From IMG/VR virus record IMGVR_UViG_2563366867_000009: 48,304 nucleotides of DNA; one strand, written 5' to 3'. Position 1 is the first letter of the stretch. Each line of letters opens with the position of its first letter. Shown piece by piece: positions 42,001 to 45,000 of this stretch. The position numbers are program-made. Origin of the DNA: a virus. Its lineage: Duplodnaviria; Heunggongvirae; Uroviricota; Caudoviricetes.

Positions 42001-45000
42001 CTGCCTCAGCAGTGACCAGTTGTTTTATATCTGTCATGAGATTTTCTCGTTGAAAGGGGTTATTAAGAAGGTTGTTCCGGAATGAGTGGGGCTTCTGTTT
42101 TTGCTCCGGCTGACTGAGTGGCGCTGATTTTCTCAGCGGCCCTTTTGTCAATCTGTCTGCGCCAGAAGTCGCGTACTGCCCTGTATCCACCCGAAAGCAG
42201 ATACAACACACAGACCACCGTACAGAAGTACAGCATTAACTGGTTGATGAATGTCATGGTTTATTACCGTTACTGTTGACAATGAGAACTGTTTTCATTT
42301 AGAAATGATTGATGTCGAAAGCATCCTTTCGTTAGATTCTCCATTGGGATTACCTCCGCCAGTCTCCATTCCTGTTGCTGGCGGTTTTTTTCGTCTGTTA
42401 TGCTGCTACGGCATTCACACCAACAGTAAGACTTTCAATCAGCACAGGGTAAGTTGCCGCATTTCCGGTAATATCCGTAATTGCCAGCGCGTTGGCCTCA
42501 AAGGCTGCATTCGTCCATCTGGTCAGCGTAAACGGTTTTCCTGCTGCATTATCAAGCACCGGCGTGACGTTCAGCGAGCCACCACCCGGGAAGCGGAAAG
42601 TCAGCGTGTGCCAGTCGTGATCGAACGGACCATAACTACCAAGCCGCTGTGATGTGGTGTTTGCATGATACATCACATTGATGTTTGTTTTATCAGTCTG
42701 CAGATAGAAGGCCGCAATATAACCCTCCTCTGATTCCGCTCCCGGCCATCCACTACCGCGCCAGTAAATACCCGCAGAATATTGATTTGCAGAAGCATTG
42801 AGAGATACATCATCGGGGATTTTAAAGCGCAGCGTGATTTCACCGCCGTTATCGAACAGCTCCTTCCCCTTACCGGCATCAATTGCGTGCGATACTTTCC
42901 AGGTCTTTTTCTGTGCAAGACCATTTTCTGGTTTTTCAAGACGAAGGGCTTTTTTACCTGAACCACTGTCACTGACCAGCGTGTTTTTGACATCTGTCAG
43001 CGTCCAGCCCTGCGAAGCCAGATCGGCATTTTCCGCATTCGCATCATAAGCCAGCACTGACTGTATCTTTGTCGGGACAACGGATTCAGGCTGAGTATCG
43101 CCACTCTCCTGTGCTGGTTGCGATACGCCTCCGCCTGAAGAAACCGCGGCTTTTGTCACTTTCCCGGAAACAAAATCTGCCACTCTGCCCACATGCAGAA
43201 GAATGGCTGTTGCCAGACGGTCGGAAATAATTCCGCGACGCGCCCATGAACCAAAGTGGGTTTTACGATCGGATGTTGTCCAGCTCTTCGCATCCGTTCG
43301 TCCACCGGAACCATAATACCCGATAGCCGGAATATCCGGGTCTTCTGACGGTTCATTGGTCCCGACTTTCTGACCATTGTCATCCATCATAAACGGCACA
43401 AAGAAGATATTTTTACCGGCTTTGGTTTTGTATGCGCCATAGACGGCATCGTATTGCGCTGAATACGTCTCCTTCCAGTAGTACGTCGTGTCACCACAAA
43501 TCCAGGGCACCAGAGAAGGAGAAGCACCAGCGCACTGACCGGATACTCCCGCCAGGTCAGAACGGTATTTTTCCACCATGGCATCAAACATGGCGGGCTG
43601 ACTGGCGTACGCTCCCTGTTTTAAATCAAACTCGCCCTGCATCCAGACAACACAAAGCAGTATGTTTTTGGGGTTTGCCTTCAGCGCGGCCTGAGTGCGT
43701 GTCAGCAGGTCTTTATACAACGGCTTATCAACGCCCCATCGTTCAGATTTATCCGACGCTCCTGAACTTTCACTGAACGTTCCGTCAGCACCGGCTGTAA
43801 ACGCAGAGCCACCACGACAGCACGGCACTAACAAAATACCCGCATTTTCCGGCATAAAGGGCAACAGCTTTTTGGCAATATGCAATCCCTGTCCGACACA
43901 CCCATACTGCTCTGCGCTGGCTTTCGGATGAGAAAAACGGCTCAAATCCTGCACATCATGCAGGCAGTGGTCCGCCGGAATGATGTCGTTATATGCACAG
44001 GCCGCACCACCCGGTGTCACCGTACTGCGACGCGCCAGCTGTTTAATACGCGGGTCCGGACGGTCATATGTCTCCGGCAGCGGCAGGCCTTCACCATACG
44101 CCATGCCGTTTGACTGTCCGGCCAGCGCAATGACAAAGTAATATTCTGGTTCAACAACAACAGTCCGGGTACCATCTCCCCCCGGTGAAACTACCGGAGA
44201 GGTCATATCCCCTTCAGCGACTATAGCCTGGATAAATTCAGCACCATAACCCGCGCTTGAGATAATCGGACTACCATAGGGTTGCCAGCCTTCCTTCAGT
44301 TTTTGCGTCAGTTTTCCTGCGAGGTCTGACGGCGATGATGCCCTGACCACGTCATAGTGTTTAAATGCCATGAATCCTCCCGGCCGGGATAGTGGGTTGA
44401 ATCAGATAAGGACTGACTGAAGTCTGAAAATACAAAAGACAACTGCCAGTAAAAACGAAAAGGCCGCGCAGTTGCGCAGTCTCATCACCATCGGGTATTA
44501 TTCACACGGTGAATAATCGAAACTCACTTTCTTTGTTTTATTCCTTGCCGCTCGCGCCTCCCGGCGCGGGCTTTTTTTGCATGTAAAAAGGCCCCTGCGA
44601 TGAGGGGCCTGAGAGTATTACCTGGTTTCAGTTAACTGCATAGTGCCGGGTGCCTCCCGGTGAGTTCAGCCCGGTGCCACCGAACCCGCGTCTTTCACAT
44701 TGCCTGTGACATTAAAAATGCCAGCCCGCACCAGCCGCCCCGCCGCTGAGGGGGATTCACCATGCGTTGCGATTTTTAACAAATTCTCCGTCAGTCAGAC
44801 AATCATCAACTTGCTGAATTGTGAGGTATTTAAAAATTTCCCCGATTAACTGATACCCTGCTAATCACCTGTTGTTTTCTTTTTCAGCAACAAAAAAGCC
44901 CGCTCATCGGCGGATTCGGCTGCGTGGCAATGTAACCATTCTTATCATGATATGAGGATTTTTACGATTGTAAAATGTTTTTTAACTGACACCAGAATCA

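Follow-up and report, generated by a model that had tools for sequence, protein, structure and literature searches.

Convergent pairs of Hfq-binding small RNAs (sRNAs) are known from eight prophages of Escherichia coli O157 Sakai, where they lie between the moron site downstream of the late promoter pR' and a conserved phage open reading frame (ORF) (Tree et al. 2014, PMC4104026). The same sRNA dyads are covered in a review (PMC7873438), and according to a 2021 review it is not known why they are arranged in pairs. Of the sRNAs directed against the late strand, AsxR sponges the host sRNA FnrS and AgvB sponges GcvB; the 5' ends of both were mapped by RLM-RACE to 6 nucleotides (nt) past the -10 element (PMC4104026). 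Their late-strand counterpart STnc100, identical to EcOnc27 of Sakai and sRNA103 of EDL933, binds Hfq, is located immediately downstream of stx2B in Shiga toxin (Stx) 2 phages, has about 11 copies in EDL933, is confirmed by Northern blots and is related to PasD of enteropathogenic E. coli (EPEC) (PMC12711010, PMC12370729, PMC5331693, PMC7873438, bioRxiv 10.64898/2026.05.13.724894). For one copy, STnc100_4, expression was documented by Northern blot (PMC5331693). EcOnc27 gives Northern bands of ~235/247 nt, exceeding the 206-nt family model, and overexpression of STnc100 raises the transcript levels of fimZ and espA. Here we describe a 610-bp region (44372-44981) that lies amid the minus-strand late genes of a 48,304-nt stretch of DNA from a Caudoviricetes virus (IMG/VR record IMGVR_UViG_2563366867_000009; this whole stretch is called the window below). 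In our assessment it is, with good confidence, the late-control region of a lambdoid (Stx-phage-like) prophage carrying a convergent sRNA gene pair, and its arrangement is that of the published dyad between late promoter and lysis genes (Tree et al. 2014, PMC4104026). All features are listed in Table 1.

The minus-strand member of the pair was identified by an Rfam scan of positions 40000-48304, in which STnc100 matched over its full length (model positions 1-206 of 206) with 150.6 bits and E = 2e-34; the gathering score of RF02076 is 47 bits. The minus-strand hairpin coincides with the terminator of the model, and by homology it is the end of an STnc100/EcOnc27-family sRNA. For comparison, the copy at the equivalent position of phage 933W scores 207.7 bits. 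As in 933W and in the Sakai prophages Sp4 and Sp15, the gene is found in the late region of a lambdoid prophage, upstream of esterase and lysis genes, and ends in an intrinsic terminator, and we infer that this copy, like its homologues, is expressed as an Hfq-binding sRNA of about 180-250 nt. The fold of the whole RNA is not more stable than that of shuffled sequences (z = -0.6), so that the assignment rests on the covariance model and not on folding energy. Covariance scans for tRNAs and sRNAs had been suggested in an earlier note on this DNA; the former detected no tRNA or tmRNA gene within the window, while the latter gave the STnc100 match. Directly 5' of the model is a block whose motifs TTAAAT, CTCACAATTCAG, GTTGA, TTGTCTG and TGTTAAAA are conserved in 54 unique sequences and in alignment A1; it offers one or two candidate promoters for STnc100. 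Among the related loci fetched for comparison, several have a second STnc100 motif on the same strand, at a distance of about 275-930 nt and apparently in tandem (L002, i.e. phiSTEC1589-Stx1c, as well as L028, L034, L053, L059, L076 and L079), and certain STnc100 copies have no convergent partner beyond their terminator.

Both terminators described in the earlier note lie at the coordinates given there and form stable folds, the plus-strand hairpin with a free energy (dG) of -19.1 kcal/mol (z = -3.2) and the minus-strand hairpin with -15.6 kcal/mol (z = -4.9). Their tails, reported to be a few bases apart, are separated by 5 nt (44579-44583), and the tail of the minus terminator ends 213 nt from the esterase ATG at 44371, in agreement with the distance of about 215 bp given before. 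A terminator scan of 43000-46500 yielded nine sites compared to 3.6 +/- 2.1 expected from shuffles, and these two hairpins rank top. The pair is not a chance feature. An invariant STnc100 25-mer occurs 138 times in the window and the fetched related loci, and in 117 of these cases the layout recurs, with an A-run, a hairpin and the CTGCGCAA block straight after the STnc100 terminator. Across relatives, 84.5% of the alignment cells of the plus-strand stem form a pair, against 24-54% if the partner columns are slid, and in 15 cells both sides of a pair are changed.

On the plus strand, the promoter upstream of the terminator follows a plan (GCGCAG-TTGCGC-AG, 18 nt, TATTAT or TAAAAT) that is common to 49 unique anti-late cassettes, AsxR and AgvB (-10 TAAAAT) included; one of the 49 is truncated directly upstream of TTGCGC. 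Applying the AsxR promoter geometry, we predict an sRNA of ~72 nt that is convergent with STnc100 and consists of a variant-specific 5' domain (CGGUGAAUAAUCGAAACUCAC), a U-rich tract resembling an anti-Shine-Dalgarno sequence (UUUGUUUUAUUCCUUG) and the terminator. This RNA folds with a dG of -25.1 kcal/mol (z = -4.0), and its interval corresponds to that of the EcOnc08 Hfq peak in Sakai Sp4 (L010 1439-1511). Variation among the cassettes clusters immediately 3' of the -10 element, whereas the 3' domain is conserved: of 5426 complete E. coli genomes, 1108 have this domain (47-55 nt) and only 30 the full-length RNA (eight at ≥99% identity), which is also present in two phage records. The earlier note had seen no obvious plus-strand gene for this terminator and had thought of a small RNA or an insulator; the former idea was borne out in that a conserved promoter is found at a fixed upstream distance and the homologues in Sakai Sp4 and Sp15 have Hfq peaks and Northern bands. 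Judged by alignments A1 and A2, in which the 3' domain is ~86-90% identical and the 5' domain diverged, the plus-strand RNA belongs to the EcOnc08/21/42 class of Sakai, with a 5' domain of its own.

Membership in the Rfam families of AsxR and AgvB was ruled out, as the 3' domain is distinct and neither RF02703 nor RF02702 matched at E ≤ 10 on 44440-44620, the 933W control scoring 88.1 bits. Weak matches to unrelated sRNA families, such as nse_sRNA (27 bits; gathering score 75), are due only to the generic terminator. RNAduplex predictions between the 5' domain and STnc100, the pR' leader, AsxR or AgvB were no better than those for shuffles. Mimicry of Spot 42 was also discarded for the window sRNA, which lacks the 11-mer UUACUUCACGU. 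The commonest anti-late class (EcOnc08 type; L010 1439-1511, L006 and many IMG/VR loci) has this 11-mer in common with the core sRNA Spot 42, with 5 of 500 shuffles scoring equally. The perfect 9-bp inverted repeat overlapping the -10 element and the sRNA start occurs only in the window variant and not in the common class. Its arm AATAATCG corresponds to the reverse complement of the AsxR 5' end CGAUUAUU; the predicted duplex is not significant. Upstream of the sRNA start, the palindrome of a third late-strand hairpin, which is conserved across cassette classes with few substitutions, also holds the -35 element of the plus-strand promoter, and the A-run of this palindrome could serve the plus strand as an UP element.

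At the upstream end of the region, positions 44989-44890 of the minus strand match 933W (L008 152-251) with 88% identity over 100 nt (blastn, E = 6e-32). According to alignment A3, which includes 933W and Sakai Sp15, the matching block contains the last codons of Q, pR', the qut-annotated octamer and, finally, an early hairpin with its U-run. The comparison with known pR'/qut regions and the promoter prediction proposed in the earlier note thus led to a module of the 933W/Sakai type, albeit ~330 nt further upstream (44974-44893); the spacing of ~215 bp to the esterase gene, which the note had likened to that between the lambdoid late promoter and tR', is not diagnostic. The pR' element is the best match of the promoter scan (10/12) and the same element as the annotated pR' of 933W, and the qut octamer is a putative Q-utilization site. 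In Sakai, the ends of the pR' transcript have been mapped via differential RNA sequencing and Term-seq, with 258 nt to the terminator tR' (PMC7547250); a start 6-7 nt past TATCAT puts the 258th nt in the U-run of tR'. The early hairpin of the window is weak (dG -6.3 kcal/mol, z -0.3 to -0.5; -11.2 kcal/mol for the Sakai homologue), and the mapped Sakai transcript continues beyond it to +258.

Homology to 933W and Sakai stops at the U-run of the early hairpin (44893), and the window lacks the remainder of StxS_L, the 74-nt StxS and also the canonical tR', which Stx phages have at +258. Relatives without a moron, e.g. L035, do possess the StxS body and tR', with the STnc100 block following within ~20 nt of tR'. 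Since StxS body and canonical tR' are missing and the early hairpin is weak, the first strong terminator past pR' is that of STnc100, at about +357. By homology, the minus terminator is thus not a pR'-tR' element, contrary to what its spacing had suggested, but the terminator of STnc100; as the first strong terminator after pR' it probably also works as the tR' of this phage, with the third hairpin (44479-44458) as backup. STnc100 can presumably be made from its own promoter as well as from the pR' leader.

Based on these features, we propose the following mode of operation. Along the late strand, RNA polymerase would meet pR' with qut, the weak early hairpin, STnc100 with its strong terminator, the third hairpin and finally the esterase and lysis genes. 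In the lysogen, pR' and the STnc100 promoter would fire constitutively, and their transcripts would end at the STnc100 terminator or, as a backup, at the third hairpin, giving rise to STnc100 RNA while the lysis genes stay silent. The TTGCGC-18-TATTAT promoter on the plus strand would drive the ~72-nt sRNA independently; ending tail to tail with STnc100, its terminator would block antisense transcription into STnc100 and pR', and an insulating role of the terminator pair is plausible. Both RNAs would most likely act in trans, together with Hfq, on host RNAs, STnc100 as a regulator by analogy with its family and the plus-strand RNA via its variable 5' domain as is the case for its positional relatives AsxR and AgvB. 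Upon induction, Q-modified polymerase starting at pR' would pass all three late-strand terminators and enter the esterase and lysis genes. While identity, homology and conservation of every element were observed directly, start sites, expression in this phage, a dependence on Hfq and RNA targets are what the comparison with relatives leads us to expect.

Several points weigh against a late-control region with a convergent sRNA pair as outlined here. The Q gene lies outside the window, and only ~17 nt of a Q 3' end remain beside pR'; the -35 element of the anti-late promoter is weak, matching the consensus at three of six positions; for STnc100 there are two promoter candidates, and the window copy is devoid of the TG of the extended -10 element common in most copies; all start sites are predictions from homology or geometry. 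Also, the AsxR/AgvB models miss the plus-strand RNA, which is longer (~72 versus 51-60 nt), so that a sponge function is suggested by analogy only. Finally, the Sakai homologues EcOnc08/21 (Sp4) and EcOnc42 (Sp15) migrate at ~271 nt on Northern blots, and the Hfq peaks of EcOnc21/42 reach upstream of the predicted promoter, which means that the main species may be a longer RNA whose start is close to the esterase 5' end or within it. Such a product of ~270 nt would run antisense over ribosome binding site (RBS) and 5' untranslated region to the plus terminator and act in cis on the late/esterase mRNA; perfect complementarity to the late transcript holds for any plus-strand RNA, and the Hfq peaks of EcOnc08/21/42 span the intergenic region, from a point ~57 nt past the esterase ATG as far as the terminator. 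For Sp15/EcOnc42, this mapping requires a +135-nt offset between the coordinates of the Sakai paper and NC_002695.2, which we derived from the StxS ends; as the offset places the EcOnc42 peak in the intergenic region, an assignment of this peak as antisense to the esterase coding sequence (CDS) was dropped. On the other hand, strand reading and promoter scan revealed no convincing plus-strand promoter at 44280-44372 and none conserved between window and Sp15. The conserved TTGCGC-18-TATTAT, with variation starting right behind it, instead points to a start near 44507, and the EcOnc08 peak taken alone fits the short form. Long and short forms are compatible and not mutually exclusive, and a long antisense RNA as the main product is to be seen as a possibility worth keeping in mind, if not the one we would favour. 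A different question is if STnc100 has a promoter of its own at all, or if it is simply the 3' part of a constitutive pR' leader of ~357 nt, possibly trimmed by RNase E like StxS, in which case the minus terminator would be tR'. The distance of only ~120 nt between pR' and the predicted STnc100 5' end would suit this idea, as would the absence of canonical tR' and StxS body, the weakness of the intervening hairpin and the precedent of StxS, an sRNA processed from a pR' leader (PMC7547250). In most phages, however, tR', tRNA and toxin genes intervene, yet the lysogens express STnc100; an own promoter must therefore exist in those copies, and the same conserved upstream block is present in the window copy, which makes a purely leader-derived STnc100 rather unlikely.

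If the two hairpins were a purely structural bidirectional terminator or insulator, no functional RNA would be expected from the plus strand. It is true that tail-to-tail intrinsic terminators do insulate convergent units, that no plus-strand ORF ends at the plus terminator and that a lysogen clearly must exclude transcription from its holin and lysis genes. But a promoter at fixed distance, conserved across cassette classes, a variable 5' part joined to a conserved 3' part as is typical of sRNAs, homologues that bind Hfq and show Northern bands, and demonstrated targets of the positional homologues AsxR and AgvB leave this explanation very improbable. Small proteins encoded by the region would be even harder to reconcile with the data. 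Short ORFs do exist in 44372-44981, of 49 amino acids (aa) on the plus and 38 aa on the minus strand, and some phage records do contain hypothetical CDSs here, e.g. one of 46 aa in Escherichia phage PhiR12_3 (L001 8367-8507, corresponding to window 44666-44806). This CDS, however, lies wholly inside the full-length STnc100 match, the annotations differ among records, indels between homologues are not multiples of three, and conservation tracks RNA helices and promoter blocks rather than codons, so that we attach next to no probability to a coding function. Short hypothetical CDSs inside STnc100 and across the dyad are also found in the L002 and L003 records and are probably spurious. The label "non-coding" given to the 610 bp in the earlier note thus holds insofar as there is no protein ORF above 49 aa, but not for RNA genes and promoters, which are dense there.

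Table 1. Features of the late-control region and its neighbours in the window, listed in late-strand order.
Feature	Position	Strand	Details
N6-methylase-type ORF, 653 aa	46160-48121	minus	N6_Mtase
Specificity-subunit ORF, 372 aa	44982-46100	minus	Methylase_S
pR'	44974-44947	minus	-35 TTTACA 44974-44969, 16-nt spacer, -10 TATCAT 44952-44947; predicted start ~44940
qut octamer ACATTGCC (putative)	44926-44933	minus	identical to 933W "qut; putative Q-utilization" (L008 208-215), via alignment A3
Early weak hairpin + U6	44893-44914	minus	~+27 to +48 of the pR' transcript; terminator scan
Conserved block 5' of the STnc100 model	44796-44838	minus	candidate promoter(s) and 5' extension
STnc100-family sRNA gene (EcOnc27 / sRNA103 family; PasD-related)	44579-44795	minus	Rfam RF02076
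Minus terminator (STnc100)	44610-44584	minus	stem 44610-44589, 8 bp, loop of 6 nt; U5 44588-44584
Plus terminator	44550-44578	plus	stem 44550-44571, 9 bp (8 G-C), loop UCCC; T7 44572-44578
Predicted anti-late sRNA, ~72 nt	44507-44578	plus	start predicted from AsxR promoter geometry; convergent with STnc100
Perfect 9-bp inverted repeat ATTATTCAC-ACG-GTGAATAAT	44498-44518		overlaps -10 element and plus-strand sRNA start
Anti-late sRNA promoter	44472-44501	plus	-35 TTGCGC 44472-44477, 18-nt spacer, -10 TATTAT 44496-44501
Third late-strand hairpin CUGCGCAACUGCGCGG + U-rich run	44458-44479	minus	terminator scan; dG -11.5 kcal/mol, z -2.8
Esterase RBS GGGAGG and ATG	44381-44376 and 44371-44369	minus	start of the first late protein gene
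Esterase, nanS-p type, 657 aa	42398-44371	minus	Pfam: DUF1737, SASA, DUF6645

Downstream of the region, the esterase gene is followed by holin and lysozyme ORFs on the late (minus) strand. At the esterase start, a CCCGGCCGGGAGGATTC block is invariant in eight homologues save one substitution in one of them. The region is 99.2% identical to PhiR12_3 and 99.3% identical to a prophage of E. coli G1/2. Hundreds of lambdoid phages and prophages, of Stx and non-Stx type, have versions of ~75% identity upstream of the esterase gene. Another strong hairpin of 12 bp with a U-run (41709-41737, minus strand) lies directly upstream of the holin gene (start at 41670); prophage sRNAs of the PasA/PasC type have been reported beside the holin-lysozyme operon, matching this site.

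Upstream of pR', the window carries a restriction-modification pair resembling BcgI (44982-48121, minus strand; L001 8683-13433 in PhiR12_3). The 372-aa specificity-subunit ORF includes a perfect 24-bp tandem repeat of 2.8 copies (45619-45685). At 48212-48304, a perfect tandem array of a heptamer (GCTGGTC on the plus, CCAGCGA on the late strand) comprises 13.3 copies and runs off the window end. PhiR12_3 shows what may lie beyond: its Q, 70% identical to that of 933W, is situated ~4.3 kb upstream of pR'. The interval holds a hok-like gene and the two restriction-modification ORFs, with the heptamer array, ~590 bp long in this phage (L001 ~11890-12470), located between the former and the latter. 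This cargo of ~4.3 kb has GTCAGTT at both borders and replaces the last ~7 codons of a 933W-type Q. Its position between Q and pR' thus differs from the classical moron site, which is found downstream of tR'.

Through convergent sRNA pairs, prophage late regions rewire the regulation of the host, with AsxR acting on haem use and AgvB on amino-acid uptake. The locus described here is a compact natural variant in which pR', STnc100 and the convergent sRNA are packed into 400 bp and neither toxin nor tRNA nor StxS sequence intervenes, and this compactness makes it a handy template for asking if STnc100-type RNAs are late-leader products, if paired terminators guard the lysis genes against leaky transcription, and which role EcOnc08/21/42 play. 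As to annotation, such intergenic regions deserve neither the label "non-coding" nor hypothetical ORFs. One may tentatively go a step further and assume that in this phage lineage, owing to the loss of StxS body and canonical tR', pR' feeds straight into STnc100, which would then be the late-leader RNA of the lysogen with its terminator as the working tR', and that the previously undescribed 5' domain of the ~72-nt sRNA implies a host RNA target, either sponged or regulated. If true, the former would suggest that the widespread STnc100/PasD family arose from, or can replace, pR'-tR' leader RNAs such as StxS and the lambda 6S RNA.

Among known systems, the locus is close to the AsxR (EcOnc02)/EcOnc27 dyad found downstream of stx2B in Sakai Sp5 and 933W (PMC4104026). 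In both cases a late-strand STnc100-family sRNA and a short anti-late sRNA meet tail to tail, a CTGCGCAACTGCGCGG block and a nanS-p-type esterase come next, and the TTGCGC-18-(-10) plan is identical. The Rfam placement in 933W (STnc100 at L008 2278-2483, AsxR at 2485-2537 on the opposite strand) has the same geometry as in the window. Differences concern the length of the anti-late RNA (~72 nt versus 53 nt for AsxR), the -10 element (TATTAT versus TAAAAT), terminator and RNA body, and in the window pR' and the dyad are not separated by toxin or tRNA genes. With AsxR and AgvB in general, the RNA has in common that it is convergent on an STnc100-type sRNA, that it is encoded between pR' and a conserved late ORF, and that it follows the same promoter plan. 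AsxR and AgvB are RNAs of 51-60 nt in which a variable 5' domain of 14-18 nt pairs with a core sRNA; the window RNA has a predicted length of ~72 nt and a 5' domain that varies. Their conserved 3' region of ~42 nt (GUAUCUCAUGC..UUGCCCGAACCCAYUCGGGC) differs from that of the window. Closer in this respect are EcOnc05/EcOnc08-EcOnc21 of Sakai Sp4 and EcOnc42 of Sp15 (an Stx1 phage), with which the locus shares the late-strand GGCAAGGAATAAA motif, the -10 element TATTAT and the terminator GCCCGCG...CGCGGGC, but the first ~25-35 nt of the window RNA are different and the 11-mer mentioned above is missing.

As to the late promoter, the pR'-qut-tR'/StxS locus of Stx1 and Stx2a phages (Sy et al. 2020, PMC7547250) has a homologous promoter (TTTACR, 16 nt, TATCAT), the qut octamer and the early hairpin; the presumed logic of the window is that of this locus and, more generally, of the lambda pR'-6S RNA-tR' late leader, in which a late promoter fires constitutively and its transcripts are terminated in lysogens but extended with Q. 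In contrast to the StxS locus, the window lacks the 258-nt StxS_L body, the 74-nt StxS_S and the canonical tR', STnc100 coming directly after pR', and Q is not adjacent but, as seen in PhiR12_3, ~4.3 kb away across the cargo. PasD1 and PasD2 of EPEC E2348/69 (Pearl Mizrahi 2021, PMC8550237) are also prophage sRNAs near Q and a sialate esterase gene, and PasD has been called structurally homologous to STnc100 (Zhu et al. 2026 preprint); by its score, the copy in the window is STnc100 proper. Taken together, each component is of a published kind, and the locus is not a new kind of element but a slightly unusual copy of a known one. What is particular to it are the compact pR'-STnc100 junction without StxS and tR', the variant 5' domain of the anti-late sRNA, and the placement of the cargo.

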